DNA from: a virus
Lineage: Duplodnaviria; Caudoviricetes
Reading direction: 5' to 3' (one strand)
IMG/VR virus record: IMGVR_UViG_3300032305_003086
Span: 1 to 64,000 of that record
DNA: 64,000 bases
Shown: positions 26,220-63,126 of the stretch, in pieces
How positions within the stretch are numbered: the stretch's first letter is position 1
How the letters are laid out: each line of letters begins with the position of its first letter
Position numbers and translations under genes: made by a program
Notes under the pieces: model-generated
What the model was told of the DNA's origin: nothing
What the model saw: the letters and a program-made list of their open reading frames with translations, nothing else
Databases searched by the model: none

Positions 26220-27053
26220 TTATGTTTCTACAATGATACTATCAACATATATCGGCTCAGAAAAAGATATAAAACCAATTTGAGGATTTTTTATTTTGTT
26301 AAAAAGCATCCTATCTTGATATGGAGCATATCCTTCTTTCACTTTTTTATGTCCTAGTATTGCATATTTTTTAATACTAATGTCATTATTATATAAATAA
26401 AAATAACTATTATTGTGTCCGTGAAAAATATAAATATTACTATAGTTTTCTTTTATCTCTATTTTTCTAATATTTTTTTTAATTTTTTGCGTGAATGTTT
26501 TTGTTCTAAATTGATTATTTGTTAGATAGTTTGAAATATTTGACGTTATTATTTTTTTGTTAGGTAAGTGCAATCCATCTTTTGTAATTTTATCGTCATT
26601 TGCATCAAATCTTAAATCAATATGAAAAATATTTTTTTCATTTGTCATATTTATTTTTTCTTGATTATATTTATTACAGTTCATGTGCTCATGCTCTGGT
26701 CTTGGGTTAAAAGGACCAGTTAAAGCAAAAACAAGTATGGAGTCGTAGTAGACAGTGTCAAACCAGTTCTTAATTTCAACTATTGTTTTGCCATTATTCC
26801 ACCCATTTCTATCATGACTTGAGCCTGCAATAAAGTATATTCCTTCATTCAAATTAGGCTTAGATTTTAAAAACATCAAAAACTCATAACATGTTCCTCC
26901 TCCACATGATATGTTTTGAATGTTAAACGAATCATATACCTCAGGAGAATTTTGTTTTAAATCTTTGTGTATATTTTGAAAAAAACATTCTCCAAAAAAA
27001 TACACATTTGATAGGGCTGGGTTTTCAAGAAAATATATTTCGTCTTCAATCAT
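26220..27053 (-). CDS. SGNH/GDSL hydrolase-like protein, degenerate
   Basis: YFFGECF (GDS-like block), ISCGG, GSSHD and DGLHL. Confidence 0.5.
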   Translation of the reverse strand: MIEDEIYFLENPALSNVYFFGECFFQNIHKDLKQNSPEVYDSFNIQNISCGGGTCYEFLMFLKSKPNLNEGIYFIAGSSHDRNGWNNGKTIVEIKNWFDTVYYDSILVFALTGPFNPRPEHEHMNCNKYNQEKINMTNEKNIFHIDLRFDANDDKITKDGLHLPNKKIITSNISNYLTNNQFRTKTFTQKIKKNIRKIEIKENYSNIYIFHGHNNSYFYLYNNDISIKKYAILGHKKVKEGYAPYQDRMLFNKIKNPQIGFISFSEPIYVDSIIVET

Positions 27054-27071
27054 TTTTAAACCTATCTATTT

Positions 27072-27704
27072 TTAAGGCCAAGATTTGTTCTTGTGACACC
27101 AAGAAAAGTTTTGTATCTCAAGAAACTCTGCTAATTTCTCACCACTATCTAGTTCAATATTAAACAATAAAAAATTGTCTTTGTTTTTAAAAAAATCTAT
27201 CATATTGTTCTTATGTTGAAGATACCAATGTTCAAGTTCATCATCAGTTTTCCCTTTACCTTTTGGTAGGCCAGGAATGTCCAGTCTAATTATTCTTTCA
27301 ATTAGAGATTGACCCTTTTGTCTAATTGGTCCTGTGCTTATGTTCCATCTATATAATGACCTTAGCCAATTATCAATATTTCTATCATTAAAAATGAATT
27401 TACTATTAGGATATTGTTGATCCAATAAGGGAATATCTATTAATTGAGGCCAATAGCACCTATCTTTATCTATACAAGTTTCCATTTGCGTGAATGCTTG
27501 ATAATTATTTAATTCAGATAATAGCGGTTTGCTTTGATATTTAGATTTTTGAATACTAATACCAACAATAATCTCATTTAGAGTCTTTATGGGAAGAAAA
27601 TCATCCGTTGACCAGTGGATAGAGGGTATTCTCGCTAAAGTCAAAGATGTGTACATTGATGTTGTACCACTTTTGGGAAAACCTATGACAAAAATTTTAT
27701 TCAT
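27072..27704 (-). CDS. Sulfotransferase family protein
   Basis: KIFVIGFPKSGTTS PAPS-binding loop, YPNSKFI and WLRS; start at 27704. Confidence 0.85.
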   Translation of the reverse strand: MNKIFVIGFPKSGTTSMYTSLTLARIPSIHWSTDDFLPIKTLNEIIVGISIQKSKYQSKPLLSELNNYQAFTQMETCIDKDRCYWPQLIDIPLLDQQYPNSKFIFNDRNIDNWLRSLYRWNISTGPIRQKGQSLIERIIRLDIPGLPKGKGKTDDELEHWYLQHKNNMIDFFKNKDNFLLFNIELDSGEKLAEFLEIQNFSWCHKNKSWP

Positions 27705-28626
27705 TAGAAGTATTCTCTCCATAGAAAAACAAAGATGCAAATCTAGAATTTTCAATAAACGCTGGGGCTAGTGAATGCAAGTTAGATGAATGTTGTCTAT
27801 CCAAATATTGCTTTATGATATTATCCGTAACTTGTTCTATATCTAAATCTTCGGCTCGTTTAAATTTGTGAGCAAATTCTTGATGAGAAAAACACTCCCA
27901 TTTCATATCTCCATCTATTTTGCTTGTTATGGATGAAATGTGCCAACCGTGTCTATCTGTTTGCATAGAAACTTTTTGTATCGGCGCTGTATAGCTATTG
28001 TATACTGTTTTTCTTTCTTCGTCATCAAATCTAAACTCATACGAGGCTATGTGGTCCAATTTATGAGGAACGCACTTTAGATTAATTCTTCTATAGTCAT
28101 TTATGTTGATTTTTTTAATATTAGAGTAATTTGTAACATATCCTTTTCTCCATATTTTTTTTGTTGGCGAGTTACTTATACTATATTTGAAGTTGATATA
28201 TGATAAAAATTGTATTCTATTGAAATCATTAATTTGATCAAGATATTGTATATTTTGAATTTCATCTATATCTTGAATACAAATAATATCATCGGGTTGT
28301 GCAATATTTGACAAGGCTTCTTGTAGCCTGTTTCTGTGTTCAAACTCAACAATCCACCTATTTTCCTTTAATGGAAGATCATTAAACCCTATAAAATTAC
28401 CTTTATATGGTTTAGGTAAATTATTGATTTTTACATAAATTATTCTATCTTTATATTCTTCAAATAGATAGCTATATTTTTCATAAAAAAAGGGTTTTTT
28501 AATTCCGCTAAATGTAGAGTCTGCCTCTGCTATAACGATAAAATCAAACCATTGTAAATCATATTTAATACGGGCTTCTAATAGCCATATTTCGTTGTTC
28601 ATTATTAAGCAGTTATATTTTTTCAT
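27697..28626 (-). CDS. Glycosyltransferase family 17-like (GlcNAc transferase)
   Basis: NEIWLLEARI, EADSTFSGIKKP, QDIDEI, GWHIS and FSHQE. Confidence 0.85.
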   Translation of the reverse strand: MKKYNCLIMNNEIWLLEARIKYDLQWFDFIVIAEADSTFSGIKKPFFYEKYSYLFEEYKDRIIYVKINNLPKPYKGNFIGFNDLPLKENRWIVEFEHRNRLQEALSNIAQPDDIICIQDIDEIQNIQYLDQINDFNRIQFLSYINFKYSISNSPTKKIWRKGYVTNYSNIKKININDYRRINLKCVPHKLDHIASYEFRFDDEERKTVYNSYTAPIQKVSMQTDRHGWHISSITSKIDGDMKWECFSHQEFAHKFKRAEDLDIEQVTDNIIKQYLDRQHSSNLHSLAPAFIENSRFASLFFYGENTSNE

Positions 28627-28627
28627 T

Positions 28628-30919
28628 TTAAAAACAGGTTCTTAACCTAATAATATTATAGGCGTTAATACAGTTTTGTCTCATCTCTTCTATTTTATCA
28701 ACAGGGATTGATTTTAGTATATCAAAGACATTTTTAATATCAGTTGTTAATATAGTAACTGAGAAGTCGTCCCAATTATAGCCTTTAATATCTGGTCTGA
28801 TCCAATCATTTTCAAACAATACTGGAATAGACCCAACAGCCATGCTTTCCCAAAGTCTAATGGTATTTGGCCCAGTTCCTTCTGGGCACAAACTAAATAC
28901 AGAATCGGACAATACGGTGTTGTATTCAAAGGTCTCAACTTCTTCCAAGCTAATCTCGTACTCAGATAGAGTTTGTTTTTTAATTTGTTTTTTATAGACA
29001 ATATTATTATAAAACCATGAATTTTTGAGCTTAAAATAAATCTCATCATTATCTTTTAGTAGCTGATATAGCTGCTCTCTTATGTCAGACGGATACCATC
29101 TGTCGCGCGCTCCTATAAAAGAACACAAATATTGCTTTTCTTCATATCTTTTGATTTTAATCCCTTTGTTCCTGTTGGGATTTTCTATATTAGCTGCGCA
29201 TATATGCCATGGAAATAAATTTATCCCATCTAGGGGGAACTTATATGATTTTTGGCTCAAATGTGACAGATGAATATTATTAATTCCAATTTTTTTCCAA
29301 AATCCTAATAGTTTGTGCCAATTTATATGCTGACAGACTGTGTGTGTATTTTTATTGGATGGAATTTCAATCTTATCAAATATCTCCTCTAAATAATTTT
29401 TACAAATAGGTTCATGTAAAAAATCATCACATTTGGGAAATTGTATTTGTAAAGTATCTATTATACTTGCCCATGAGCAAGCAATATATAAATTATCCGT
29501 AGAGTCATTGTGTATATTACTATGGTTGTAAAAAGATTGTTTTTCTGTTATTGCTGGTGATTGCCAAAGAACAGATTTAACTTCTAAAGTTTTATCATCT
29601 TCAGAAAGACTAATTTCGATATTATTTATTTCTTTTTCAACTTCATCGATTTCTTGTTGGGTTTTAGCTATTACCAATTGTTTAAATGATATTTTAGAAG
29701 ACACAGAACTAAAACTGCTCCAATTTGATCCTATTATTTTAGATGTTTTAGATAATAAAAATAAATCCACCACGGCATCGTCTTGATTATATTTAGGTTC
29801 ATACATGCAAACACTATTAAAAAAAGTTTTATTTGTGTTATAAAATATTTTATCTCTATATTTATTTAAAAAAATCTCATTTGTTTCTTCGCTATCTGTT
29901 GATAAGAAAAAATTTACATTAGGATTTTTATCTATCTCTTCGTCTAGTAAACAAAAAAAACTTTGATCATCAGATACTTTAAATTGATTTTTGCATGTAC
30001 TATTCCATGCATCTCCTCTTCTTATATGTATGCCAACCGTATTGTTGTTGAAATTAATATTATATATTTTATCTATTTTATCTTGTATCCATTTAATAGG
30101 TTGTAGGCGAGAATAAAAACAGTTTTGTTCTTTGAAAAAATGTGGCATCATATACTCTAAACAAGAATCACCGCTATAACAAAAGTCTTCTGTCAGAATC
30201 TTATGAAAAATACTTCTTACAGATTCATTGAATGTATAGGAAATACTATCATCTGACTTAATTATACTCGATTTTAGATCAAATATATTATTTTTTTTTG
30301 TAGAATATTCTTCACCAGATATAAAATTAATTTCTTGATTAATAAATAAATCTGTAAATTTATCATTTGACCATCCCGGACCAGACTCCCAACATACGAA
30401 CAAATTTTTGCCAAAAAGTATTGATAGACTATAAAAAGAATTGATGGTTCTTAACCTATTGGCCAATCCATTTTGCACTTTTATGTATACGTTTTTTTTA
30501 TTCTTTTGAGGTATAGAGAATTTGTTTTCTAATGTTTTTTTATATTTGAACTCTAAATTAATTTTGTTTTTAAGGTCTTGGATTGCATTAGCTGTAACCT
30601 CACACTTACCCCATCCAGTTTTTGAACAAATATCTTCTGCTTTAGCGATATAATCAAAAGCCAAAACAAATTCATTTTGATTTAGAAAAACCTTAGATAA
30701 TCCTAAGCAAGCCCAAGGAGTTTGACCAATTTTCAAAGCTTTTTTATAAAGTGATATTTTTCTATGATCTCCGTCATCTAGGCAATTAGCGTATCTTATT
30801 AAAAGTTTAAAGTCTTCAGTATCATCTGTAACTATTTGTTGATATATGTCTCTAGCTTCAATGTGGCGACCACTCAGTTGTAACTCGTATGCTTTTTCTT
30901 TTTGTTCTATTATATTCAT
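28628..30919 (-). CDS. Multidomain glycosyltransferase: TPR, fucosyltransferase-like (GT11/GT23-like) and exostosin (GT47)
   Basis: TPR N-terminus; GLANRLR, GIHIRRGD, SSFS; C-terminal FSLCPEGTGPNTIRLWESMAVGSIPV. Confidence 0.85.
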   Translation of the reverse strand: MNIIEQKEKAYELQLSGRHIEARDIYQQIVTDDTEDFKLLIRYANCLDDGDHRKISLYKKALKIGQTPWACLGLSKVFLNQNEFVLAFDYIAKAEDICSKTGWGKCEVTANAIQDLKNKINLEFKYKKTLENKFSIPQKNKKNVYIKVQNGLANRLRTINSFYSLSILFGKNLFVCWESGPGWSNDKFTDLFINQEINFISGEEYSTKKNNIFDLKSSIIKSDDSISYTFNESVRSIFHKILTEDFCYSGDSCLEYMMPHFFKEQNCFYSRLQPIKWIQDKIDKIYNINFNNNTVGIHIRRGDAWNSTCKNQFKVSDDQSFFCLLDEEIDKNPNVNFFLSTDSEETNEIFLNKYRDKIFYNTNKTFFNSVCMYEPKYNQDDAVVDLFLLSKTSKIIGSNWSSFSSVSSKISFKQLVIAKTQQEIDEVEKEINNIEISLSEDDKTLEVKSVLWQSPAITEKQSFYNHSNIHNDSTDNLYIACSWASIIDTLQIQFPKCDDFLHEPICKNYLEEIFDKIEIPSNKNTHTVCQHINWHKLLGFWKKIGINNIHLSHLSQKSYKFPLDGINLFPWHICAANIENPNRNKGIKIKRYEEKQYLCSFIGARDRWYPSDIREQLYQLLKDNDEIYFKLKNSWFYNNIVYKKQIKKQTLSEYEISLEEVETFEYNTVLSDSVFSLCPEGTGPNTIRLWESMAVGSIPVLFENDWIRPDIKGYNWDDFSVTILTTDIKNVFDILKSIPVDKIEEMRQNCINAYNIIRLRTCF

Positions 30920-31740
30920 AAAATAATAAAGTCCATGGGTTGGTCTAATATGTATTCAAACGTTGAGTCTTCAATACCTCTAATTTTATTTTCAAGCCAC
31001 CGTCCAATGATAACTTCTTTTTTAATATTAGTAGTTTTAATTGGCATTATGTGATATTCTACGATTGAAGGATTTTCCGGATTAGTTGTAGGACTAACAA
31101 AAGCCAAAGATCCAATAATTGAAGTGTCTGCTTTATCATATGTTCTTATTTTAGATATGTGCCTGTGGTAAGACTTTATCTCATAAAAAGGATTATAAAG
31201 ATCCCAACCATGCACAGAAAAAATATAAGCTATTTTATTATCACAGCGATACTTTCCTGTTGGTACATCTAGTTCTTTTATAAAGCTAAAATTATTTTCT
31301 TTGCTGAAATTAATAATCCAAGAATCTTGCGACCATTGGGGGTTTTCGTGGGGAACAATATGTTCATCAAGATCTTCATATCTAGACAAGCACATTAAGC
31401 TATTTGGTTTTTCAAGATATTTGTATACTTCGTTGATGCTATCGTCAAAATACATATCGGCATTACCAAATATAGAAACGGTATTATTTTTGATAGAGTA
31501 GTCAATCCAATCTTTATATGTAGGGATTCTATCTATTTTTATGAAATTTAATTTATTTGCGTAGATATCCGGCTCTTCAAAAAAATGATAGAAGTCAGAA
31601 GATCTAGTGTTTTGATCAAGAAATATGTTTATTTTATTGATGCATGGATTTCTTATGTTCTGAGTTAAACAATAGTCTAACTCTTTTTGCCTATACTCAG
31701 ATTCAGACTTAAAATAAGTGGTAAACAGATTAATTTTCAT
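30916..31740 (-). CDS. Putative GT-A glycosyltransferase
   Basis: RQKELDYCL, NADMYFD, SQDSW and CDNKIA; lies inside the GT island. Confidence 0.6.
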   Translation of the reverse strand: MKINLFTTYFKSESEYRQKELDYCLTQNIRNPCINKINIFLDQNTRSSDFYHFFEEPDIYANKLNFIKIDRIPTYKDWIDYSIKNNTVSIFGNADMYFDDSINEVYKYLEKPNSLMCLSRYEDLDEHIVPHENPQWSQDSWIINFSKENNFSFIKELDVPTGKYRCDNKIAYIFSVHGWDLYNPFYEIKSYHRHISKIRTYDKADTSIIGSLAFVSPTTNPENPSIVEYHIMPIKTTNIKKEVIIGRWLENKIRGIEDSTFEYILDQPMDFIIL

Positions 31741-32714
31741 GAAAAAATATTTTTGACCTCATCTATGTGAGTATGACGTCTCATTTTATGATAATAATTT
31801 TTTTCAAAATAGTCTTTAGCATTAATTTGCACATTGTATTTATTAAAAACTAATTGTAAAATATTGATAAATTTTTCTTTCTGTTTTTGGGCTAAAAGTA
31901 TGTGATCTTTTCTAATCCTATCCCCATCTCTGGGGTTGTTTTTAAAAAATTCAACAGATTCTGCGACGGAATCTTCGTCGTCATCACATATTATAGAGTT
32001 ATAGTCATTATACCAAAAGTCTCTTCCTCCTAATGATTTTGTAGAAACAACCGGTATGCCGCACAATAGATATTCACTTGAGGAAAAACAGGCTCCTTCC
32101 ATAGCAGATAACATTAGTCCGCAATAAGATTGATTAATTTTTTTACAAACTTCTTCTATATTGAGTTGCCTGTCATTGTTGTAAATATGTGGCGGTAAAG
32201 AATAAGATAAACTTGGGCCACAATGATTATTTCCACCCGCAACGATAGCCAGCTTATCCACCTTTCTTGCTAAGTAATGTCTTTTGAAATCTCTTTGTCT
32301 GGAAACTAGTATGGCATCGTATTTTTTTTCTATAACTTCGGGCTTTATTATGTTTTCATCTATCCAAGCATTATGATTTATCAATTCTCCAAAAAATCCT
32401 TTTTGTTCTAGAAAATTTTTCTCTTGAATAGAGTTGAACAGAAAGAAAAAATTGTTCTTATTCAGTTTTAGATACTCGAACATTTCATGGTAGTGCTTGG
32501 CATGATGATTATCCATATACCAACCACAATAAACAAAGAAAAAATGACTATCGTTGATTTTATTTTTACATTCATCAAGCCAATTAAAATTATGAACTAT
32601 ATTTTCAATAATAAAAATATTGAGTCTTTTATCTTGAAAGTAGTGTCTAAATGGAAAATAGACATTTGGCCAAACATAAAAGGGCTTGAATGTCATTGGT
32701 AAAATCCTAATCAT
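31737..32714 (-). CDS. GT-B glycosyltransferase (GT4-like)
   Basis: KRHYL and EGACFSSSEYLLCGIPVVST (E-X7-E motif). Confidence 0.8.
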   Translation of the reverse strand: MIRILPMTFKPFYVWPNVYFPFRHYFQDKRLNIFIIENIVHNFNWLDECKNKINDSHFFFVYCGWYMDNHHAKHYHEMFEYLKLNKNNFFFLFNSIQEKNFLEQKGFFGELINHNAWIDENIIKPEVIEKKYDAILVSRQRDFKRHYLARKVDKLAIVAGGNNHCGPSLSYSLPPHIYNNDRQLNIEEVCKKINQSYCGLMLSAMEGACFSSSEYLLCGIPVVSTKSLGGRDFWYNDYNSIICDDDEDSVAESVEFFKNNPRDGDRIRKDHILLAQKQKEKFINILQLVFNKYNVQINAKDYFEKNYYHKMRRHTHIDEVKNIFS

Positions 32715-33727
32715 ATTTCTAATTCCAGTTCAAGAGCATCTATATCTATGATTATATTAAAAGATTTATCCGCTTCTATTAATATATGTTTGTATTTTTC
32801 CGCCATCTTGAATGCATTTCTAAAATTGTAACACACTCTGTTGTTTGGGCAAAACTCTATTATTTTAGCTTCAGGATTACAGAATATAGAATTTGCAAAC
32901 ATAGATCCATGTGCTCCAATTATAATTTTTGCATTAGCGAAATATTCAACCACTAAATCAAGTGGTTCTTGCCCATTTAGAATAATAAATTCTTTTTTGG
33001 ACAGAGCATCAATAACTTCTTTTTCATTAATAACACCTCTATTCCCAACTTTAATATGGTTTCTGCTTAAATATAGGCTATATTTTGGCTCGATATTTTG
33101 TATGTTAAAGAGTGAAAAATACCTCTCTAAAATCCAACTGTAGGCGTCTCTGTCTATTTCTGTTGGTATTGTTGGGGATAATGAATATATTAAATTGCGT
33201 ATCTTTATGTTCAATTCATTTGCCACTATCAAGTCTTCTTTTCTTATGTCTCTTTCAGAAAACGCAGACAAGTGTTTTATAAAGTCTGTAATTCTGTCGT
33301 GTGTTGATACTATAAATTTAATATTTGGATCTTGTATTTGAGATTTTATAGGATAAAGTCTTTGAAGCGTATCAAATAAATGCCCAAAAGCATAATAACC
33401 AAAAGGATGTGTTAAGTCTACGCAATTCTCAACATCTATAAAATCAGAACATTTAAAAGCTTGTTCATGTTTATTCTTAATATCTTTTCTTCTAATTTGA
33501 ACATGTTCGTTCAATATGTTTTTGTCACGCATAAATCTAGAAATGCAAGACGGCTCCCAAAAAATACGCTCGTCTAAAGTTTCAGGTAAAACAACTCCAT
33601 CTTTATCAAATAAAATACCATTAGACATAATCACATTATGAAACTCATAAGATAATTTATCGTGACCAAAATAGTTATGATTTTTTGATTCTAAAAATTT
33701 GATTGTATTTCTTTTTGGCAATTTCAT
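32711..33727 (-). CDS. Glycosyltransferase family 61 (DUF563)
   Basis: FGHLFD, LYLSR, RGVINEKE and IIGAHGSMFANSIFC. Confidence 0.85.
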   Translation of the reverse strand: MKLPKRNTIKFLESKNHNYFGHDKLSYEFHNVIMSNGILFDKDGVVLPETLDERIFWEPSCISRFMRDKNILNEHVQIRRKDIKNKHEQAFKCSDFIDVENCVDLTHPFGYYAFGHLFDTLQRLYPIKSQIQDPNIKFIVSTHDRITDFIKHLSAFSERDIRKEDLIVANELNIKIRNLIYSLSPTIPTEIDRDAYSWILERYFSLFNIQNIEPKYSLYLSRNHIKVGNRGVINEKEVIDALSKKEFIILNGQEPLDLVVEYFANAKIIIGAHGSMFANSIFCNPEAKIIEFCPNNRVCYNFRNAFKMAEKYKHILIEADKSFNIIIDIDALELELEI

Positions 33728-35321: not shown

Positions 35322-35328
35322 AACGCTC

Positions 35329-46771: not shown

Positions 46772-46786
46772 GAATATATCTCAAAT

Positions 46787-47155: not shown

Positions 47156-47166
47156 AAAAATATATA

Positions 47167-47325: not shown

Positions 47326-47327
47326 AT

Positions 47328-48086: not shown

Positions 48087-48130
48087 ATATAAATTTGTAA
48101 TGGTTTCAAGCCACAAACAAGGAGGTTTAT

Positions 48131-48310: not shown

Positions 48311-48327
48311 TTTGCAAGGAGGCAAAG

Positions 48328-49647: not shown

Positions 49648-49661
49648 ATATAATATATATG
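49645..49661. promoter_or_regulatory. Overlapping divergent ATATATA boxes between two start codons 11 nt apart
   Basis: CAT-ATATAATATAT-ATG. Confidence 0.55.
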
Positions 49662-50915: not shown

Positions 50916-50932
50916 AAAATTAAGGATTATAG

Positions 50933-51634: not shown

Positions 51635-51635
51635 T

Positions 51636-53048: not shown

Positions 53049-53194
53049 TAATATATGATAATTATAAAAACAATAAAATTCTAAAAAAATTATCAAAATT
53101 GGTAAAATTTTTTAAATGAATTGTACATATTAATAAACAACAACTCCAATGTCCAGATGCAAATTTTTAAAAATTCAATTAGATATATATATTT

Positions 53195-53653: not shown

Positions 53654-56115
53654 GACATTGGCATTTTTCTATTTTTAGACCAGTTTATATACCGACACCC
53701 GGCCCTACGCTAACTAGGCCTACACTAACCAATACACCTACACTAACCAATACACTTACACTAACCAATACACTTACACTAACCAATACGCCTACACTTA
53801 CACTAACCAATACGCCTACACTTACACTAACCAATACACTTACACTAACCAATACGCCTACACTAACCAATACGCCTACACTAACCAATACGCCTACACT
53901 AACCAATACGCCTACACTAACCAATACGCCTACACTTACACTAACCAATACGCCTACACTAACCAATACGCCTACATCAATTTATGTTTCTGCCGCAGTT
54001 CAAGGATCTACAATTTCAAATTTCAATTTGAAATTAATTAAAAATAATCAAATTATGGATTATTTTATTAATGTTTCTGGGACGTCATCTCAATTAGCCT
54101 ATTCAGATATAAATCAAATATTAAATCGTCAACCTGATGCTATGATAGCTGAGAGCAATGATAACACCATAGATCTAGACACCGGTTTGCATGTAGATTT
54201 CAAATTTTACTATCCATTCGATTTAATTAGTGGAAAACTTGTAATTGGAGGAAGTATAATATTCTCAATAGTTTCTTCTATTGTTTACTCTTTGGTTGAA
54301 AAAGGAAATAATATTACGAGCGCTATTTCTAAAGCAAATTCAAATTTAGGTGTAAATTTTTCTAATTACATAACAGAAAGTTATGATAATTATATGGAAG
54401 GTAACGAAAAAGAAGCATTAGATAGATTGCAAGTTGTTTCTGTTATTACTAAAAATACTATAGACAATTCTACTAACGAGCATTTATTCGATTCATTTGC
54501 AGATGTTATCGACTCCGGAGCCTCTTCTTCTGATCCAGACCAGTTTTTATCAGATAATTTTTCTTCTGTGGTGCAAAAGGTGCAAAAAAAATCTTTAGGA
54601 CTATCTGATAATCAAAGCCTTCCATTGTATGAAACTCTGATCACAGAAAATATAGCTCAAAATGCAAATCAAGCAGCACAAAAACATATAACAGATGCAA
54701 AAGACATTTCTTCTTTAGTTTATGCGAATAATTTAATTGAAAATTCAAATGTTAGATTTGATGATAATACTGGTGTGGTTTTTGATGAAATTAATTTTCA
54801 AAATAACGTCCTAGTTAATCAAATATTCCCAACACCTACTCCCACTCCAACAATAACACCAACCCAAACTGCTACTCCAACAATTACTCTCACAGCTACT
54901 GTTAGCTCTACTGTGACATTGACCAATACACAAACTAATTCTCCGACAATTACCTCTACAAATACTTCAACCACAACATCTACTCCAACTCCAACTGTAT
55001 CTTCCACATTGACCGCAACTCCAACAATTACACCAACAACAACATCAATAGCTGGATTTAATTCATCAATATTAATTACAGATGAAACCAACGGAAATAG
55101 CAGTTATGGAATAACACTTATTGGAAAATATGGATCTCAACTAATATTTAATAATATTGCGGACTATAATTCTCTACCAAATAGTATGCAAGTTTATATT
55201 AGTGGAGTTGCTGCTTTGGGCGTAACTTACTCTGATGTGTATGAGAATTCGGCTATAATTATAATATATGATAGTGTTGCATACAGTGCTAATTTAACTA
55301 ATGGAAGATTAGATCTTTATAAGAACACACCAACTCCAACGCCAACAAATACAATGACAAATACGCCGACCACAACATCAACCTCGACTACAACGCTTAC
55401 CCCTACAATAACAGCAACAAATACAAATACTACTTCTTTAAGTGCAACTCCAACATTAACTAGCACTCCAACAATTACATCTACAAGAACTCCTAGAGCA
55501 ACAAGAACAGCAACCCCAACATCAACACCAACAATTACAAAAACTTCGACATTAACATCAACCCCTACACCAACACCAACACTAACAAATACCATGACAT
55601 TAACAAATACCAATACCCCCGCTGCCACTGCAACACCTACGCCGACTTTAACAAACACACAAACATGCACGCCCACAATCACAGCAACAAAAACATTGAC
55701 TTCTACATCTACCGCAACTCCTACAAAAACAAGCACTCCAACAATTACTAGCACTCCAACTCAAACTCCAACAATTACTAGCACTACAACACTAACTCCA
55801 ACAAATACAACAACTCCAACATTAACTGCAACCACCACGCCAGAATTCGATACTACAATAGTTATTTCAGATTCGCCTTACGGCAGTTCATCAAAATCAG
55901 GAGTAACCATTTCTGCTCTTTATAATGCAACTTTAAGTTTTAATTCAATAAATACCACGCAATCACTACCAGCTTCTATGTCTGTTTTCATTGACGGAAC
56001 CCCAGTTGCAAATATAACATTCCCGAATGATTATGATTCTAAATCATTATCATTAATTATAAATAATTTGAAATACAGAACAACATTCCAGAAAAATACT
56101 AGGGTGGACTTATAA
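53650..56115 (+). CDS. Mucin-like Thr/Pro-rich virion protein
   Basis: Three Thr/Pro tracts separate globular domains, including two related short beta domains. Start at ATG 53650, in an ATGA overlap with the upstream stop. Confidence 0.8.
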   Translation: MRHWHFSIFRPVYIPTPGPTLTRPTLTNTPTLTNTLTLTNTLTLTNTPTLTLTNTPTLTLTNTLTLTNTPTLTNTPTLTNTPTLTNTPTLTNTPTLTLTNTPTLTNTPTSIYVSAAVQGSTISNFNLKLIKNNQIMDYFINVSGTSSQLAYSDINQILNRQPDAMIAESNDNTIDLDTGLHVDFKFYYPFDLISGKLVIGGSIIFSIVSSIVYSLVEKGNNITSAISKANSNLGVNFSNYITESYDNYMEGNEKEALDRLQVVSVITKNTIDNSTNEHLFDSFADVIDSGASSSDPDQFLSDNFSSVVQKVQKKSLGLSDNQSLPLYETLITENIAQNANQAAQKHITDAKDISSLVYANNLIENSNVRFDDNTGVVFDEINFQNNVLVNQIFPTPTPTPTITPTQTATPTITLTATVSSTVTLTNTQTNSPTITSTNTSTTTSTPTPTVSSTLTATPTITPTTTSIAGFNSSILITDETNGNSSYGITLIGKYGSQLIFNNIADYNSLPNSMQVYISGVAALGVTYSDVYENSAIIIIYDSVAYSANLTNGRLDLYKNTPTPTPTNTMTNTPTTTSTSTTTLTPTITATNTNTTSLSATPTLTSTPTITSTRTPRATRTATPTSTPTITKTSTLTSTPTPTPTLTNTMTLTNTNTPAATATPTPTLTNTQTCTPTITATKTLTSTSTATPTKTSTPTITSTPTQTPTITSTTTLTPTNTTTPTLTATTTPEFDTTIVISDSPYGSSSKSGVTISALYNATLSFNSINTTQSLPASMSVFIDGTPVANITFPNDYDSKSLSLIINNLKYRTTFQKNTRVDL
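53719..53976 (+). repeat. Near-perfect coding VNTR, 18/24-bp units (TLTNTP)
   Basis: About 13 copies of acactaaccaatac(g/a)c(c/t)t with occasional 6-bp additions. Confidence 0.9.
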
Positions 56116-59100
56116 TGTTGAATATAACTGAAAATTCTAAAATTATACAGTACCTTGGTCCACTAGTTGAAATTTCTAGTCTGCCGGGCAATATTTCTAC
56201 TATATTTGGGGTTATAAATGGAAATTATGTTTCTTATAGAAATGATGTTCCTTACAACTCGCTAAATAGTCTTGCTACAGGATCTAGTTATCTAATATTC
56301 AGTTCACAAACGCCTTACCAATTATATTCAGATCCAGATGCATCTGTCTCGGGACAGTCTGTTGTTTTTCAGTATCAATTCGTTTATTATGAAGGGCCTG
56401 ATTTAGATTTACAGACCAATTCATTCATAACAGACAAGGTAAACAAAATATATTCCTGGAAGAACGGAAGTCCAATAGGTTGGATAAATGGCGAATCTCT
56501 AAATTCTCTTAAAACTTTAGCAGGAGGAAATTCTTATCTTTTTATAAATAAAATAGAAAAATTACCATATTTGCTTTGGGGCCAAGTTTCCATTACTCCT
56601 ACTGTAACTAAAACTTTAACAGCAACTCCAACCTTAACATCAACCCCAACATTGACTCCTGTGGCTACTCAAACTAGCACCGTAACATTCACTCCTACTC
56701 AAACCACAACACCAACACTAACAAGCACATCAACAGTAACTCCCACATTAACTACTACAAAAACACAAAAGAGCACGCCTACTATAACTCCAACAAAAAC
56801 ATCCACAAATACACTTACAAACACTCCAACCCAAACAAACACAAACACTCCAACAATTGTTACACCTACACCTACTCAAACTCAAACGCAAACTCCTACA
56901 ATTACCTCTACCAACACGCAAACATCGACTCAAACTCTAACACCAACACAAACACCTACTCCAACATTAACTTCAACTCAAACTTTAACATCCACTCCAA
57001 CTAACACACAAACTTTAACCAGAACTCAAAATACCACCCCTACACTAACATCAACAAAAACTCTAACTCCTACCTACACATTAACACCAACAATAACGTC
57101 CACTACGACATCAACATCTACTCCCACTTTGACTTCCACTTTAACCGCTACTCCTACACTGACATCAACGACAACTTTAACATCTACTCAAACTTCAACT
57201 CCAACTACAACCGCAACAGCAACATTAACTCCAACAATTACCTCTACAAAAACTCAAACTTCTACACCCACACTAACAAGAACAATTACAAATACAAAAA
57301 CCACTACCTCTACACCGACCAATACACCAACAACAACTTCAACAAGTACAAACACTCCTACTATTACACCTACACTAACCAATACATTTACATACGCCGG
57401 TGAGAAATTCATATCTTTACAAAATTCAGATTCAAATTATGTGAATCTAAATGGTGCCGGTACTGATATGTTTCCTTACTCTGGCTTTGTTGGAGGAAAT
57501 AGGGAAGACGGAACAATAAGAAATGTGGTGTTTTTAGTTAATAAAAATGGAACTCTTAGATATAGCCTAACAGCTTCCAGCGAAAGAAATTATGATTTTG
57601 GCATCATCAAGAAAAACGGATCTCCTGTCGATTTGGTCACCGGAGACGACAACATATCAGGAAACATACAAGTAATTATTGGCGACACAATAGAAATATC
57701 ATACCAAAAAGATTCAAGTGATTATTCTGGGGATGACGGTGTTTATTTGGATTATATAGCAGTAAATTATCCAACACCAACCCCAACGCAAACGCTCACT
57801 GCGACTTTTACTTTAACAAGCACTCTCACACAAACCCAGACTCTTACTGCCACACAGACACTGACACCAACACAAACACTTACAAACACACCAACTCAAA
57901 CTGTTACATCTACGCCTACAAGTACAATTACAAGCACTCCTACTCAGACTTTTACTTCAACGCCAACTCAAACCATAACTTCAACACCAACTCAAACTGT
58001 TACATCTACTACTACAAGTACCGTTACAAGCACTCCTACTCAAACTTTAACACCTACTCAAACAACCACATCAACACCAACTTCAACAACAACTTCAACA
58101 GCAACACCAACTACAACTCCTACTATTACACCAACTATTACATTGACTTCAACAACAACAGCAACACAGACTCCGAATACCCAAAACACAATAGACCCTT
58201 CAATATTAGATTACTTTATATTTAATGAAAGCTTGAGAAATGATTATAATCATTATCAACTTTTATATTCAAACAATGATAATTTCAATGATTTTGGTTA
58301 TTTTGAAAAAGCTTTGAATTTAGAGTACTTACTTGTGGGCGGAGGTGGTGGTGGCGGTATGGATATGGGCGGAGGAGGTGGTGGCGGCGGAGTTTTAACC
58401 GGAACAATGACCTTAAATAATTCTATTACCACAACAATCACTGTAGGCTCTGGCGGATGGGGTGCTCCTTCAGGAAATGGTGGATACCGTGGCGATGGAG
58501 TTGGTCCCCAACGAAACACACATCAATTTACAATTGGGGCAACAAATGGAGCGAACTCTTTAGCTCTGGGACTCACCGCTTTTGGCGGAGGTGCTGGTGG
58601 CAGTTCTTATTATGATTATTCGCCCGGAGCCTCAGGATCTAACGGTGGATCAGGCGGTGGCTCCTCAGGTTATAGCAATGGAAGTACAAGAGCAGGCGGG
58701 TTAGGAACATTAGGACAAGGATTCAATGGAGGACAAGGCGGAGGTCAATATTATTCTGGTGGAGGTGGCGGAGCAGGAGGACCTGGTATTAATTCTCCAA
58801 GTAGACCTGATGGTGGACCAGGAAAATTGAGTAGTATTTTAGGATCTACTTTATATTGGGGAGGTGGCGGTGGTGGTTCTGCTTACACTGCTGGAACAGG
58901 AGGAAACGGAGGAATTGGTGGGGGCGGTGGTGGAGCAGTTGGTATTACAATAGGAGGAAATGGTTACAACAATGGCTCTGCTGGTGGTGGCGGAGCAAAT
59001 AATTCTCAAACTAACAAACCAGGAGGAAATGCAGGAGCAAATACTGGTGGTGGTGGGGGAGGTGGTAGTCACTATAATTTCACAAACGCAGGTGGCAATG

Positions 59101-60662
59101 GAGGAAGCGGAATAGTTGTATTATGCTACTATGGACCGCCACTATCTAATATAAGCGCAGGACTAACATATACACTCAATACTACATTTAGACCTGGTTT
59201 CAATTTGTATATTTTCACTTCAGGAACAGGCCAAATTACTTTAAATACTGAACAGCCTGTGATCAGACCAACACCAACGCCAACAGCTACGCCAACAGCT
59301 ACGCCAACAGCCACAGCTACGCCAACAGCCACAGCTACGCCAACAGCCACAGCTACGCCAACAGCCACAGCTACGCCAACAATAACACCAACACAGACGG
59401 TTACGCCAACACTCACCATAACTAATACCCCCATACCAGTTACGCCTACTCCATCAGCTAGTCCAGCAGCAGCTAACAATGGTATTATTATACAATCTAA
59501 TGTTTCTAACACTCCAAGAGCATTAGTTGGTGGTGGAGTAACTTATAACCCAACCTTTATCAATAACGATTATAGACAATATTATAGTCAAATAGTAGAT
59601 CGTTGGAATTATACAATGAGTAATGGAAGATTACCTTATGATAATATATGGAATAACTATTATTTGTTTAATGGCGGTGGAACATATTATTTTAACTTTA
59701 TGATTCCAACAGTACTTACAAAGTATAGATTATGGAATCCTTTCAAAGCAAATATGCCATGTCCCGGATTTGGTGGACCTTATGAAATAAGGTCATCTGT
59801 TACAGGTCTTGGATATAATAGATATTTAGACTTTGGTAATCAAACGCCTCAAGCTTGGAAGATACAAGGAAGTAATGATGATGTTAATTGGGTTGATGTT
59901 GATGTTAGAACAAGTCAAGCAAGATTGCCGTATGCAACTAGCGATATACCGGCTAATAGTGAATACGGAGAGTTTTCTATTTCTTCTCCAACAGCATACA
60001 AGTCGTACAGATTTGTTGTTACAGGAAGAGGAAGAGACGGGTATGGCTGTAGCAAGAGTGGATGTTACTACGATTGGGTATTAGGAGAAATGCAACTTTG
60101 GGGATATGAAAGTCCTTCTTCCACAAGCGCCATTCATGGATATTACTCATGTCTACCCACGGCAAAATATGTAAATGCATCGCAAGGATTTGACACCTCT
60201 TCTTTTAAGAATGCATTTTTCCAATCTGGTGGTTTAGGGGGAGATGATAGAAATAAATGGAATGTATTTGGACAAGGAACACCAAATAGAAGTTGGAATA
60301 ATTATTGGGAAATTCCATACAAAAATATTGGAACAACCGAAACAGGATATTTAGGCTTTGATTACGAAGTTGTAATCAATTCATATTCTCTAAAGTCAGT
60401 GATTGCCCAAGGTGGTGCATTAAATTATCTGTCTTCGTGGGAATTATATGGATCAAATAATTTTTCTTCTTGGAGTTTGTTAGACAGTAGATCTGGCGTT
60501 GGTTCAAATGTTATCTCCACAAATTATAGTTTTAGTAATTCTGTTGGCTACAAATACTATAAATTCATAGCAACAGATGGAACAAGGCGCTGCGATAAGG
60601 ATGGTTGTAGTTGGGGGAATGTAAGAATTTCTGACATACAACTCAAAGGCTATATAACATAA
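56115..60662 (+). CDS. Large fibre/adhesin: Thr/Pro mucin-like tracts, Gly-rich domain and two discoidin (F5/8 type C)-like domains
   Basis: T/P tracts near 56590-57390, 57770-58185 and 59270-59460; LVGGGGGGG...GGSGIV Gly-rich domain; PQAWKIQGSND, WELYGSN and YKYYKF motifs. Confidence 0.85.
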   Translation: MLNITENSKIIQYLGPLVEISSLPGNISTIFGVINGNYVSYRNDVPYNSLNSLATGSSYLIFSSQTPYQLYSDPDASVSGQSVVFQYQFVYYEGPDLDLQTNSFITDKVNKIYSWKNGSPIGWINGESLNSLKTLAGGNSYLFINKIEKLPYLLWGQVSITPTVTKTLTATPTLTSTPTLTPVATQTSTVTFTPTQTTTPTLTSTSTVTPTLTTTKTQKSTPTITPTKTSTNTLTNTPTQTNTNTPTIVTPTPTQTQTQTPTITSTNTQTSTQTLTPTQTPTPTLTSTQTLTSTPTNTQTLTRTQNTTPTLTSTKTLTPTYTLTPTITSTTTSTSTPTLTSTLTATPTLTSTTTLTSTQTSTPTTTATATLTPTITSTKTQTSTPTLTRTITNTKTTTSTPTNTPTTTSTSTNTPTITPTLTNTFTYAGEKFISLQNSDSNYVNLNGAGTDMFPYSGFVGGNREDGTIRNVVFLVNKNGTLRYSLTASSERNYDFGIIKKNGSPVDLVTGDDNISGNIQVIIGDTIEISYQKDSSDYSGDDGVYLDYIAVNYPTPTPTQTLTATFTLTSTLTQTQTLTATQTLTPTQTLTNTPTQTVTSTPTSTITSTPTQTFTSTPTQTITSTPTQTVTSTTTSTVTSTPTQTLTPTQTTTSTPTSTTTSTATPTTTPTITPTITLTSTTTATQTPNTQNTIDPSILDYFIFNESLRNDYNHYQLLYSNNDNFNDFGYFEKALNLEYLLVGGGGGGGMDMGGGGGGGGVLTGTMTLNNSITTTITVGSGGWGAPSGNGGYRGDGVGPQRNTHQFTIGATNGANSLALGLTAFGGGAGGSSYYDYSPGASGSNGGSGGGSSGYSNGSTRAGGLGTLGQGFNGGQGGGQYYSGGGGGAGGPGINSPSRPDGGPGKLSSILGSTLYWGGGGGGSAYTAGTGGNGGIGGGGGGAVGITIGGNGYNNGSAGGGGANNSQTNKPGGNAGANTGGGGGGGSHYNFTNAGGNGGSGIVVLCYYGPPLSNISAGLTYTLNTTFRPGFNLYIFTSGTGQITLNTEQPVIRPTPTPTATPTATPTATATPTATATPTATATPTATATPTITPTQTVTPTLTITNTPIPVTPTPSASPAAANNGIIIQSNVSNTPRALVGGGVTYNPTFINNDYRQYYSQIVDRWNYTMSNGRLPYDNIWNNYYLFNGGGTYYFNFMIPTVLTKYRLWNPFKANMPCPGFGGPYEIRSSVTGLGYNRYLDFGNQTPQAWKIQGSNDDVNWVDVDVRTSQARLPYATSDIPANSEYGEFSISSPTAYKSYRFVVTGRGRDGYGCSKSGCYYDWVLGEMQLWGYESPSSTSAIHGYYSCLPTAKYVNASQGFDTSSFKNAFFQSGGLGGDDRNKWNVFGQGTPNRSWNNYWEIPYKNIGTTETGYLGFDYEVVINSYSLKSVIAQGGALNYLSSWELYGSNNFSSWSLLDSRSGVGSNVISTNYSFSNSVGYKYYKFIATDGTRRCDKDGCSWGNVRISDIQLKGYIT
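59277..59380 (+). repeat. Coding tandem repeat, 12/18-bp units (PTATAT)
   Basis: Repeated acgccaacagccacagct. Confidence 0.85.
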
Positions 60663-60672: not shown

Positions 60673-62022
60673 ATGCCAAGTGAAAGAATATTAATAGGTG
60701 GAGGAACAGGGTACGACAACAGTTCTGTTGAATCTAAATATCGTTCTTATTATCAGTTTAGAACTTATGATATTTATGAGATTGTTGGAAATCCACAGGT
60801 GAGAAATGGAAGTTTACTTGCAACTTATTACAACTCGGACGATACAAGAATAAGCAATACATACACAATACTAACAAATAGACTTTTTACTGGAGTTTTG
60901 CCATATACTGACCCTTATGATAAAAACTATTATTGTCAAACATTAAACTTACCTCCTTTAGTACCCAATTACCTACCTGCTTTATCAACATATAATGCGG
61001 CTAATGAAATATTTTTTACATTTGGACTTCCTGTAACTTTAACAAAATACAGAATATGGAACGGTTTTGCAAACGGAACAAGTGGACAAACTAGTGCTAA
61101 TATGGGATTGGATACTCCAAGATCCTGGGTCTTATATGGAAGTAATGATTATATTAACTGGACGGAAGTAGATTCCAGATCAAATCAGTCACCACTGTCA
61201 TATGCCACTGGCAAACTTTGTAAAGATAGTCCATACTCAGAATACTCAATAACAGCGCCTTCTGCTTACAAAATATATAAACTTTCAGTTACTGTCGGAG
61301 CGTCTAATTCCTCTCTTGCCTTCAATTGTAATAAAAGTGGTTGTAATTATTTTTACGGATGGCAAATAGGAGAATTACAGCTGTGGGGATATGAAAGTCC
61401 AATGTCTTCTTGTAGCTTGCATGGATATGATACTCTGCTTCCTGGAACAAGTGGTTCTATGAGCAAACTATTTGGATTAAAAAACGCCTGTAAAGAAGTG
61501 GGCATCAACGAAGGTTTCTCGGCAGCACCAAATAATGATAATTTTGGTTATTTATCTCGTTCTTGGGAATATTTTAGTGACTGGACTTATTCAAATATTT
61601 ATTACTCTATATTGGATCAAACTAGAGCATTTAGAGCAAATTACTATGGTCCCAATCCAAATGTCGTTATCATTTCATCATCTATTGATATGGGTCAAGC
61701 ATTAACTATCACATCATACAATATGTTGGGAGCATATCTTGATACCGATGGTTGGTATAGAAAAGGAGATGGTTCTCCTAAAAATTGGACGCTCTATGGA
61801 TCAAACAACAACTCAACATGGACAACTATTGACTCAATAACTAATGCTAGTTTGACCTATACAGCTTATTCAAACTATAGCATAGGTTCTCCGGCGTCAT
61901 ATAGATATTACAAGCTAGAAGTCAAAGGAGGAGGGGGCGTACAAACTGGTAATTGCGACAAAGGAGGATGTTGGTATGCCTTGGGACTAAACGACCTTCA
62001 ATTTATAGGAGCCATATCATGA
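60673..62022 (+). CDS. Tandem discoidin (F5/8 type C)-like fibre protein
   Basis: PRSWVLYGSND, PKNWTLYGSN and YRYYKL; paralogous to the C-terminus of the upstream gene (shared GE.QLWGYESP). Confidence 0.8.
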   Translation: MPSERILIGGGTGYDNSSVESKYRSYYQFRTYDIYEIVGNPQVRNGSLLATYYNSDDTRISNTYTILTNRLFTGVLPYTDPYDKNYYCQTLNLPPLVPNYLPALSTYNAANEIFFTFGLPVTLTKYRIWNGFANGTSGQTSANMGLDTPRSWVLYGSNDYINWTEVDSRSNQSPLSYATGKLCKDSPYSEYSITAPSAYKIYKLSVTVGASNSSLAFNCNKSGCNYFYGWQIGELQLWGYESPMSSCSLHGYDTLLPGTSGSMSKLFGLKNACKEVGINEGFSAAPNNDNFGYLSRSWEYFSDWTYSNIYYSILDQTRAFRANYYGPNPNVVIISSSIDMGQALTITSYNMLGAYLDTDGWYRKGDGSPKNWTLYGSNNNSTWTTIDSITNASLTYTAYSNYSIGSPASYRYYKLEVKGGGGVQTGNCDKGGCWYALGLNDLQFIGAIS

Positions 62023-62558
62023 AAGGTGTCTGTGCTTTATTTAATGGAAAGGCTTTGGCTCTTGTGACAAGAAGCGGCAGTCATGCTTTAATGAATCTTA
62101 TGCTTCCAAAAGATCATGTAAAAAGTCAGCCCGAACATCTGAAAGCACAAAGATGGCACCCTATAATGAATCTTCAGGGTCATGATCTAAGACTAGGTTT
62201 GCCGGAATGTGAAGTTTATTGTATGGTTCGGGACCCTATTGAAAGATTCAAAAGTGCTTGTGCAAGAAGAAATAAGACCGTTGAAGAAGGATTATTAGAG
62301 GATGAAGTTCACTTTTGGAGTATAGAAAGCATGGGGCTTTTAAACGATAGTATTAAATACTTCTTATTTCCAGAACAAATAGATGAATGTGCAGATTGGC
62401 TAGGATTACCAACTCCAGTACCAAGAGTAAACGAAGAAAAAGATGAGAAAAAGCCAGTTTTAACCGAAGAACAGCTTGAATTAGTAACCAAACAGTATTA
62501 TAATGATAATGAACTATATAAAAAATTAAAGGAGAATTATTATGGCAAACAATTTTGA
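62019..62558 (+). CDS. Sulfotransferase family 2-like protein
   Basis: TRSGSHAL (degenerate PAPS loop), VRDPIERFKS, HFWS and YYND; ATGA overlap with the upstream gene. Confidence 0.6.
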   Translation: MKGVCALFNGKALALVTRSGSHALMNLMLPKDHVKSQPEHLKAQRWHPIMNLQGHDLRLGLPECEVYCMVRDPIERFKSACARRNKTVEEGLLEDEVHFWSIESMGLLNDSIKYFLFPEQIDECADWLGLPTPVPRVNEEKDEKKPVLTEEQLELVTKQYYNDNELYKKLKENYYGKQF

Positions 62559-63126
62559 TGGTCAGGTGTTATTAGTCCCTAATTTTATAACAGCAGAAGA
62601 GGTACAAGTTCTTAAAGATTGGGCTAATCAAGCTGTAATTGATGGGCAATTTGTTGATGGAGTTACTGGAAACTGGGACACTAAAGAATTCAGCAGAACT
62701 AAGAAAAGACTCACTAATCGTATGAGTCAAAATATTAATTATCCTGAGCTAGTTAAGACTTTGCAAGACCGAATTCGTCAAAGTATTCCGCTAACAACAG
62801 AAGCTCCGGTTATTGAGAACCATGGCAAAGACGGAGTTGTTGTGAGCGTAACCTATAATGATGGAGACGTTTATAAGCACAAAGATCCAGGTGTGGGCGA
62901 AGGCGTGGTCGGTCTAAGGTGTAATATTCTTGCTAGCAAAGCACAAAGCGGTGGTACGGTTCATGTTGAAGATAAAACCTATGATCTAAACGAAGGAGAT
63001 ATGATGTGTTATTTAGTAACAGAACTTTATCATAGTGTTGATGTTTGTCATGGAGATAATCCACGAACGCTATTTATGTTCGGGTTTGTTGTGGATGAGA
63101 ATAGTTGGAAAGATAGCCTTAAATAA
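62542..63126 (+). CDS. 2OG-Fe(II) oxygenase (prolyl 4-hydroxylase-like)
   Basis: VPNFIT, HKD, GG, distal HSV and R. Confidence 0.85.
   Translation: MANNFDGQVLLVPNFITAEEVQVLKDWANQAVIDGQFVDGVTGNWDTKEFSRTKKRLTNRMSQNINYPELVKTLQDRIRQSIPLTTEAPVIENHGKDGVVVSVTYNDGDVYKHKDPGVGEGVVGLRCNILASKAQSGGTVHVEDKTYDLNEGDMMCYLVTELYHSVDVCHGDNPRTLFMFGFVVDENSWKDSLK

Follow-up and report, generated by a model that had tools for sequence, protein, structure and literature searches.

In our literature searches, glycosylation of virion proteins was found only for mycobacteriophages, archaeal viruses or giant viruses. For the mycobacteriophages Che8, Corndog and others, it was reportedly described by Freeman et al. in 2023 (Cell Host Microbe 31:1216, as cited in PMC12619734 and PMC12801897). 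Glycosyltransferases (GTs) of family GT60 are known from protists. The GT60 enzymes of Dictyostelium and T. cruzi transfer GlcNAc onto Thr of Thr/Pro-rich (T/P-rich) spacers or onto the hydroxyproline (Hyp) of Skp1: in Dictyostelium, the target of Gnt1 is Skp1-Hyp and that of GntB is spacers of the PTVT type, and in T. cruzi these enzymes initiate mucin glycosylation. Meanwhile, the large GT sets of cyanophages have been ascribed to modification of the host surface or of DNA. Here, we describe bases 1-64000 (the window) of a single IMG/VR virus contig of 126,598 bp (G000; GC 32%). The source is an uncultured aquatic T4-like huge phage of about 0.5 Mb, and the window is its tail and fibre region. 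It encodes three fibre-like proteins with long (Thr-X)n tracts, a sulfotransferase-like/oxygenase gene pair and a large set of GT genes. The fibre-linked enzyme pair, together with the lineage-wide linkage of GT60 to T/P proteins, makes phage-directed modification of the (Thr-X)n spacers by soluble phage enzymes the best explanation of this locus, one that we favour tentatively and rate at slightly less than an even chance.

The tracts total 136, 396 and 515 residues in the proteins at 1..993, 53650..56115 and 56115..60662, respectively, and no further tract of this kind was found among the open reading frames (ORFs) of the 126.6-kb contig. They are composed of Thr (43-47%), Pro (12-13%) and Ser (8-10%), with 3-8% charged residues, nearly all of them basic. 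The period is strictly 2: for about 90% of the Thr residues, position i+2 is again Thr, and Thr seldom occurs in TT pairs. Single tracts of ~80-280 residues are set between globular modules, at residues 20-127, 396-484 and 559-757 of 53650..56115 (numbering of the 53620 ORF), and at residues 153-435, 549-699 and 1038-1118 of 56115..60662, whose Gly-rich domain is Gly_rich_2. The underlying DNA is tandem-repetitive only in part, as in the 18-nt unit encoding PTLTNT at 53719-53976, a recent repeat. The C-terminal module of 56115..60662 had no family match, and two discoidin-like motifs were judged by eye within it. The C-terminal part is the only one conserved among relatives (44-80% identity), which indicates that the reading frame is real. 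Encoded next to the tract proteins are, among others, a small tail-fibre-like protein and proteins of the discoidin, PA14 and Gly-rich kinds.

Nine related records were compared whole. Among these, G001 (381 kb, 79% complete) has 62 ORFs in common with our contig, the fibre module among them. A 165-aa domain that stands alone at 116893..117651 of G000 is joined in G011 (9710..11551; cf. G010 21642..22700) to a T/P tract of 186 aa, showing that heads are shuffled as modules onto T/P stalks.

The fibre genes are followed by two small enzymes. The ORF of the first was initially taken as 61953..62558 but most likely begins at 62025, which yields a protein of 177 aa, as in relatives. It displays the invariant motifs R16-S17-G18-S19 and R69-x-P71-x-x-R74-F75, likened by eye to the motifs that bind 3'-phosphoadenosine 5'-phosphosulfate (PAPS), and its identity to relatives is mostly 77-93%, falling to 42-59% in three divergent loci. 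The top 50 Foldseek matches of its AlphaFold model (predicted local distance difference test, pLDDT, 77) were nearly all sulfotransferases, although the best E was no lower than 5e-3. In a second-look aligner, the top rows were all sulfotransferases, and the best matches (Z 7.3, root-mean-square deviation 4.3 over 162 residues) were heparan sulfate 6-O- and 2-O-sulfotransferases. With moderate confidence, we take this to be a minimal sulfotransferase-like protein. An hhalign comparison of its family with the Pfam-positive sulfotransferase at 27072..27755 found nothing, and profile searches of this family and of the oxygenase family against PDB sequences gave nothing significant. No adenosine 5'-phosphosulfate (APS) kinase is encoded, so PAPS would need to be supplied by the host, and a supply encoded by the phage itself was rejected.

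The second enzyme is a 2-oxoglutarate (2OG)-Fe(II) oxygenase in which H113-x-D115, H164 and R175 do not vary across 16 sequences. The best Foldseek matches of its model (pLDDT 84) were PHD2, Dictyostelium PhyA, vCPH of chlorovirus PBCV-1 and the prolyl 4-hydroxylases (P4Hs) of Pseudomonas and Bacillus (E ~2e-7), and by its predicted structure the protein probably belongs to the prolyl-hydroxylase-like fold clade. It had no Pfam match at E <= 0.01 (WelO5 came at 0.041), PF13640 finds nothing in G000, and the best named viral match was a cyanophage 2OG oxygenase.

This enzyme pair is tied to fibre genes well beyond the present phage. A scan of IMG/VR with the oxygenase retrieved 21 related loci in which the pair lies downstream of fibre genes. 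Gene order was alike in 21/21: a long variable protein, a ~450-aa protein, the sulfotransferase-like gene and the oxygenase. The ~450-aa protein that separates the fibre gene from the pair is invariably of the 60673 type or of its paralogue type 65992. Conservation within the module is highest for the two enzymes (mostly 77-93% identity, 42-64% in the three divergent loci). A T/P protein with a tract of 32-240 aa was present in 16 of the 21 loci, corresponding to about 11 of 15 distinct arrangements, and the T/P proteins concentrate at the module (two of three in G000; three of five in G001, inside a 17-kb stretch of its 381 kb). Several pair loci carry collagen-like proteins, with or without a T/P protein, and the PHROG matches of module neighbours in relatives were to collagen-like tail fibres, head-decoration/tail-fibre-like proteins and a portal. 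As a substrate of the oxygenase in this phage, collagen repeats were rejected, since neither G000 nor G001 has any.

The linkage of GT60 to T/P proteins was seen in relatives of the phage. An alignment-based scan of viral contigs detected at least 566 relatives of GT60, and neighbourhoods were counted within a 10-kb radius for the best 80 of these. A T/P protein lay no more than 10 kb from GT60 in 37/80 loci, versus 1/38 loci for a control gene from this phage group (Fisher p = 4e-7); a second control, the relatives of the GT with tetratricopeptide repeats (TPR) at 3698..5164, reached 4/62. When the GT60 proteins were clustered at 90% identity, 28 of 62 clusters had a T/P protein, and in 8 the T/P gene directly abuts GT60. 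Among the compared records, GT60 matches with E values of 1e-53 to 1e-64 were found in G001, G004, G005, G006, G010 and G011, and all of these except G004 are known to carry 166-895 aa of T/P tract. When only near-complete records are considered, the long-tract G001, G005 and G006 have GT60, whereas G007 (56 aa) and G009 (0 aa) lack it. G005 has three T/P proteins at a distance of 4.6 kb from its GT60 gene. By analogy, this linkage fits the action of protist GT60 enzymes on T/P spacers or hydroxyproline.

Further products of the GT60 operons are an HtrL/YibB-like protein, sugar O-methyltransferases and a carbamoyltransferase. In three loci of other phages (L167:1-9942, L184:5052-9908 and L190:5836-9936), proteins of 1366-3313 aa with a Thr/Pro tract of 973-1460 aa end ~60 nt before GT60. 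G001 has a weak HPAT-like gene (hydroxyproline O-arabinosyltransferase; PF23452, E 5.6e-7) at 76616..77494, 1.1 kb downstream of GT60. Finally, a conserved S8 subtilase gene (window 5582..6586; G011 46645..47547; G004 17503..18420) borders on the GT60 operon in G011 and G004; in G001 it lies next to a T/P protein, and in G000 next to the GT at 3698..5164. This subtilase may be a processing protease tied to the same system.

From the observed tracts, enzyme families and linkages among genes, we infer each chemical step, the acceptor and the location on the virion as follows. Lectin-like globular modules would be joined through nearly uncharged, strictly alternating (Thr-X)n spacers, and soluble phage enzymes would modify these spacers post-translationally in the cytoplasm of the host. 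Thr would be O-glycosylated, a step begun in relatives by the GT60 homologue of polypeptide alpha-GlcNAc-transferases. Pro may be hydroxylated by the conserved prolyl-hydroxylase-like oxygenase, and the small sulfotransferase-like enzyme would perform sulfation. A 10-kb cassette of eukaryote-type GTs (GT17, GT23+GT47, GT61, GT47, GT-A/GT-B and a sulfotransferase) would extend and decorate the glycan. The initiator of this phage may sit in the remaining 75% of the genome or among the ORFs that had no family match. A more far-reaching version holds that the phage coats its own fibres with a complex, sulfated, Thr- and/or hydroxyproline-linked glycan, a glycocalyx resembling mucins or arabinogalactan-proteins (AGPs) and built wholly in the bacterial cytoplasm. 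Its toolkit would comprise the mobile cassette (GT17, GT23, GT47, GT61, GT77-like), the prolyl hydroxylase and two sulfotransferases, and we consider it possible but doubtful.

The earlier note on this DNA, made from the sequence alone, had claimed three T/P-tract proteins, two sulfotransferases and a 2OG-Fe(II) oxygenase. All three tract proteins were borne out by the length and low charge of their tracts. The sulfotransferases are both supported, 27072..27755 by PF17784 and 62025..62558 by motifs and weak fold matches, and the oxygenase is upheld by its invariant HxD...H...R residues and prolyl-hydroxylase-like fold. The proposal that the phage builds up glycans on its own fibres is supported in part: the tie of the enzyme pair to fibre genes and the GT60 linkage in relatives speak for it, and among the parts that fell short is the initiator, none having been found in the contig.

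Several observations weigh against modification of the spacers. GT60 (PF11397) had no match at E <= 1 in the 126.6-kb contig, which is ~25% of the genome, and no initiating enzyme of either the GT60 or the HPAT-like kind was found in it. The counts that associate GT60 with T/P proteins ignore shared ancestry and so are not phylogenetically independent, although the contrast is large. The tract proteins are putative virion fibres, an assignment well supported by gene context and otherwise made on weak PHROG matches only. The fold match of the sulfotransferase-like protein is modest (Z 7.3; Foldseek E 5e-3), and the fold list of the oxygenase is flat at Z 15-17, with P4Hs scoring alike with PiuC-type oxygenases, SnoN and AlkB. 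Four pair-bearing loci (L033, L034, L051, L052) have no T/P protein within reach, and in L051 and L052 the 7-10 kb available upstream is free of collagen repeats as well. G001, G005 and G006 have long T/P tracts but no cassette, indicating that the tracts do not need it. Finally, GT1 and GT2 genes are present in the tract-poor G007 and G009 too.

The cassette (25.4-36.6 kb) is of restricted distribution. Its homologues have 52-78% identity in G011, and are partial in G010 (up to 81%) and in G004 (73-90%). A scan with the GT23+GT47 protein retrieved only G004, G010, G011 and a sibling of G011. In each of the three other contigs that have the cassette, GT60 lies 3-25 kb from it. In G011 the whole set falls within 42 kb: the fibre genes and the enzyme pair occupy 7-12 kb, the cassette follows at 23.6-38 kb, and GT60 is located at 41 kb. 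Since it travels with GT60, it is plausible that the cassette extends the same glycan.

The GT genes are listed in Table 1 with the other features of the locus. No membrane segments were found in the GTs. Some of the GT genes are placed between the sheath and baseplate genes, and the second cluster abuts the fibre operon. The gene at 20070..20930 is the only GT in common with G001 (57% identity). In the second cluster, pairwise tests of 50933 and 52248 against the GT-A genes of the contig were negative, and a homologue of 51636 adjoins a GT47 gene in G004.

Table 1. Features of the tail and fibre region and of the adjoining contig (G000 coordinates; single numbers are ORF starts as listed)
Position	Strand	Feature	Support or remark
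1..993	-	Fibre-like protein fragment: globular N-terminal domain, then 136-aa (Thr-X)n tract	C-terminus lost at contig end
3698..5164	+	Soluble protein with tetratricopeptide repeats (TPR, residues 1-200) and GT9-like C-terminal GT-B	Passes Pfam cut-off; FlmG/OGT-type architecture
14415..15401		gp15-type sheath stabiliser	
15630..18056		Tail sheath	
20070..20930	-	GT2-like, between tail sheath and baseplate genes	Just under Pfam cut-off
21137..22057	+	GT2 N-terminal domain and C-terminal TPR repeats	Passes Pfam cut-off
23455..24504		T4 baseplate protein	
25457..25795, 25895..26107	-	Two small ORFs at cassette edge	87-93% identical in G010 and G011
26220..27053	-	277-aa cassette member	No family match; 57% identical in G010
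27072..27755	-	PAPS-type sulfotransferase inside cassette	PF17784; 75% identical homologue in G010 cassette
27697..36642	-	Co-oriented soluble GT cassette	
27697	-	GT17	Passes Pfam cut-off
28628	-	NodZ/GT23 + GT47	Passes Pfam cut-off
30916	-	Cassette ORF	No support in any search
31737	-	GT4-like	Just under cut-off
32711	-	GT61	Passes Pfam cut-off
33724	-	Weak GT-B	Faint GT matches
34482	-	GT2_4/GT92-like GT-A	DxD region aligns with 68861 gene, E 0.003
35329	-	GT47	Passes Pfam cut-off
49659..53096		Second cluster, adjoining fibre operon	One two-domain GT and three ORFs without family match
49659..50915		Two-domain GT: GT7C/GT2-like + Nucleotid_trans (GT77-like)	Passes Pfam cut-offs
50933	+	ORF of second cluster	No support from any search
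51636	+	ORF of second cluster	No support from any search
52248	-	ORF of second cluster	No support from any search
53195..53653	+	Small protein, opens fibre operon	Weak match to tail-fibre C-termini (phrog_9017, E 1.9e-6)
53650..56115	+	Beads-on-a-string protein: three tracts (396 aa) separating one large and two small repeated globular modules	
56115..60662	+	1515-aa fibre-like protein: N-terminal module, tract, module, tract, Gly-rich domain, tract, C-terminal module	
60673..62022	+	~450-aa protein with F5/8-type-C (discoidin) C-terminus	Matches a tail protein
62025..62558	+	Minimal 177-aa sulfotransferase-like protein	Motifs and weak fold matches
62542..63126	+	2OG-Fe(II) oxygenase, prolyl-4-hydroxylase-like fold	
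68861	+	GT2_4/GT92, beyond window	Passes Pfam cut-off
72314	+	Nucleotid_trans, beyond window	Passes Pfam cut-off

The note had counted about 15 GTs. Seven pass Pfam cut-offs, four are weak (20070, 31737, 33724 and 34482) and four are unsupported, so that 7 to 11 can be defended. Its SGNH-like gene was not confirmed, having neither a match nor an N-terminal GDS motif. Its statement that the window contains no nucleotide-sugar genes holds; yet a DegT sugar aminotransferase is encoded beyond the window at 71218..72312, in the same operon as the GTs located there. That plus-strand operon (68064..74345 of G000; L054:5064-11345), downstream of the fibre genes and continuous with them, has three small radical-SAM genes, two of them with SPASM domains, as well as the GT2_4/GT92, DegT aminotransferase and Nucleotid_trans genes and a six-helix HTTM-like membrane protein (72960..74345). 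It could represent a pathway for an unusual sugar or for peptide modification.

Three further expectations of the same note concerned how the GTs act, and none of them was supported. First, TPR-GTs had been proposed as primers of the tracts. In a family-alignment scan of 62 loci, T/P neighbours occurred in 4/62, all marginal (30-35 aa) and at background level, and a single-sequence search found no close viral relatives, so TPR-GT was rejected as the tract initiator. The position of the gene at 3698..5164, where G011 and G004 carry the GT60 operon, hints at a replacement; yet its family has no linkage to T/P proteins. Second, the number of GTs was expected to rise with total tract length, and the compared records display no such trend: G005 has 895 aa of tract with GT60, two GT2 and two GT1, G007 has 56 aa with three GT2 and three GT1, and G009 has 0 aa with no GT2 and four GT1. 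These GT1 and GT2 counts are lower bounds, obtained from PF00535, PF00534 and seed homology only. Meanwhile, G001 has 646 aa of T/P tract and no GT47, and no homologue of either GT cluster apart from 20070; its own GTs are eight scattered GT2 matches and two GT7C, accompanied by sugar epimerases/dehydratases. Third, GT47 and sulfotransferases had been taken to build chains of the glycosaminoglycan (GAG) type. The GT47 domains are there, but GT64 (PF09258), their partner in EXT-type polymerases, is absent from G000, G001, G004, G010 and G011, and a GAG/heparan-type pathway was rejected.

The serious rival to glycosylation of the spacers is that the cassette and the dispersed GTs remodel host envelope glycans (lipopolysaccharide, capsule, S-layer or pilin), for example against superinfection, and that the tracts are unmodified or are modified by the enzyme pair only. 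Large aquatic phages are often rich in GTs, and their authors invoke modification of the host surface (PMC12801897, with 13 GTs; 10.64898/2026.10.24.761521; PMC12619734). The accessory, patchy distribution of the cassette among relatives agrees with this, as do the GT1 and GT2 genes of tract-poor relatives and the DegT aminotransferase and polytopic membrane protein of the downstream operon. However, the contig has no initiating phosphoglycosyl transferase (PF02397); the search did not extend to WecA-type transferases or ABC exporters, which the host could supply. No flippase or polymerase was recognised either: the only polytopic protein (72960..74345, six transmembrane segments) resembles the HTTM type and not Wzx/Wzy. 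Moreover, the GT genes are interspersed among those for the tail and fibres, and the cassette travels with GT60, whose sole acceptors known to us are proteins. On balance we regard host-glycan remodelling as improbable, but worth serious attention.

Considerably less likely, in our view, is that the (Thr-X)n tracts are plain extended linkers, like the PT boxes of bacterial cellulases produced in non-glycosylating hosts, and that the adjacency of the enzymes reflects co-expression only. The oxygenase and the small sulfotransferase-like protein would then act on collagen-like fibres in relatives, on small molecules or on the ~450-aa discoidin proteins. The tract of one relative, L035, is 79 aa long compared to 515 aa here, with C-termini 80% identical, which fits a simple spacer. 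The pair is also kept in the four loci devoid of T/P tracts, as well as beside collagen-like proteins, and the fold list of the oxygenase does not single out one substrate. Against this, the linkage of GT60 to T/P proteins is strong, T/P proteins concentrate around the enzyme pair, and the strict period-2 Thr and near-zero charge of the tracts exceed what a flexible linker needs.

That the GTs hypermodify phage DNA against restriction is scarcely credible: to our knowledge, none of the families GT17, GT23, GT47, GT61, GT77-like and GT92-like includes a DNA glycosyltransferase, a dozen GTs exceed any known DNA glycan pathway, and a non-exhaustive search found no hydroxymethylase among the annotated ORFs. 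In its favour are the Mom-like DNA-modification gene at 75788..77320, the nucleotide-metabolism block (dUTPase, ribonucleotide reductase, GATase-like) between the two GT clusters and the well-known glycosylation of DNA by phage GTs, cited in PMC12619734. In the Mom-like gene (L054:12788-14320), DUF7487 is fused to the Mom-like/GNAT domain beside a helicase, making it a candidate for DNA base modification.

The assignment of the contig to a huge phage follows from its gene content. CheckV estimated a completeness of 25% for its 126.6 kb, which places the genome near 0.5 Mb. Besides the structural genes of Table 1, the window encodes gp46/gp47-like nuclease subunits, a class I ribonucleotide reductase, a dUTPase and a phage PDDEXK nuclease. 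The ribonucleotide reductases nearest to that of the phage are those of jumbo phages, and a DNA search against cultured phages gave no near match. An origin in a giant eukaryotic virus was considered on account of the GT17, GT47, GT61, CAP and M24 genes. It was rejected because of the T4-type sheath, gp15, baseplate, gp46/47-like and phage PDDEXK genes, and because the relatives are huge-phage contigs. The M24 methionine-aminopeptidase-like gene and the CAP (cysteine-rich secretory protein) domain gene, at 47328..48825, are both unusual for phages. A phiEco32-like COOH-NH2 ligase gene at 8886..9947 is kept in G001.

If the phage does modify its spacers, aquatic tailed phages would make mucin-like glycoproteins in the bacterial cytoplasm with enzyme families best known from the eukaryotic Golgi. 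Such a finding would change how the protease resistance of phage fibres, their binding to surfaces and mucus, and their evasion of recognition are viewed. It would also offer soluble, secretion-independent enzymes for engineering O-glycans, hydroxyproline and sulfate.

Among the described systems, FlmG of Caulobacter (PMC7591256) resembles 3698..5164 in architecture, both being soluble with N-terminal TPR and C-terminal GT-B. The two differ in that relatives of the phage TPR-GT have no neighbourhood link to T/P proteins (the 4/62 loci above). Mimivirus fibrils and chlorovirus PBCV-1 share with this phage a virus-encoded glycosylation machinery, proposed to coat surface fibres, and PBCV-1 vCPH (PDB 5c5t) is a close fold match to 62542..63126. 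These are eukaryotic viruses and not a T4-type tailed phage, with other acceptor sequences and other GT families. The extensins and AGPs of plants, made with P4H, HPAT/GT95, GT77 and GT47, are similar in their non-contiguous Pro within Thr/Ser-Pro repeats and in a P4H-like enzyme, the Chlamydomonas P4H bound to a (Ser-Pro)5 peptide being a top fold match of 62542..63126. The likeness of the GT77-like (49659, 72314) and GT47 (28628, 35329) genes is at the family level only, HPAT (GT95, PF23452) is not in G000, and arabinose-donor genes were not seen.

The mycobacteriophages, too, encode soluble GTs near structural genes, and O-glycosylation of their virion proteins by these GTs, in the cytoplasm of the host, has been proposed or demonstrated. 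The mycobacteriophage acceptors are short C-terminal stretches of capsid or tail-tube subunits, served by one to few GTs, whereas the would-be acceptors here are hundreds of spacer residues, accompanied by a predicted hydroxylase, predicted sulfotransferases and a cassette of putative eukaryote-type GTs. The GT60 systems of protists differ from this locus in that GT60 is not in the contig, that the phage enzymes would be soluble and act in the bacterial cytoplasm, and that GT17, GT23, GT47 and GT61 are not part of the protist pathways. Both, however, have Thr/Pro-rich acceptors (three proteins here), GT77-like enzymes as in the Skp1 pathway and a prolyl-hydroxylase-like oxygenase in the gene set, with Dictyostelium PhyA among the best fold matches. 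In the relatives of this phage, strong GT60 homologues are themselves linked to T/P proteins.

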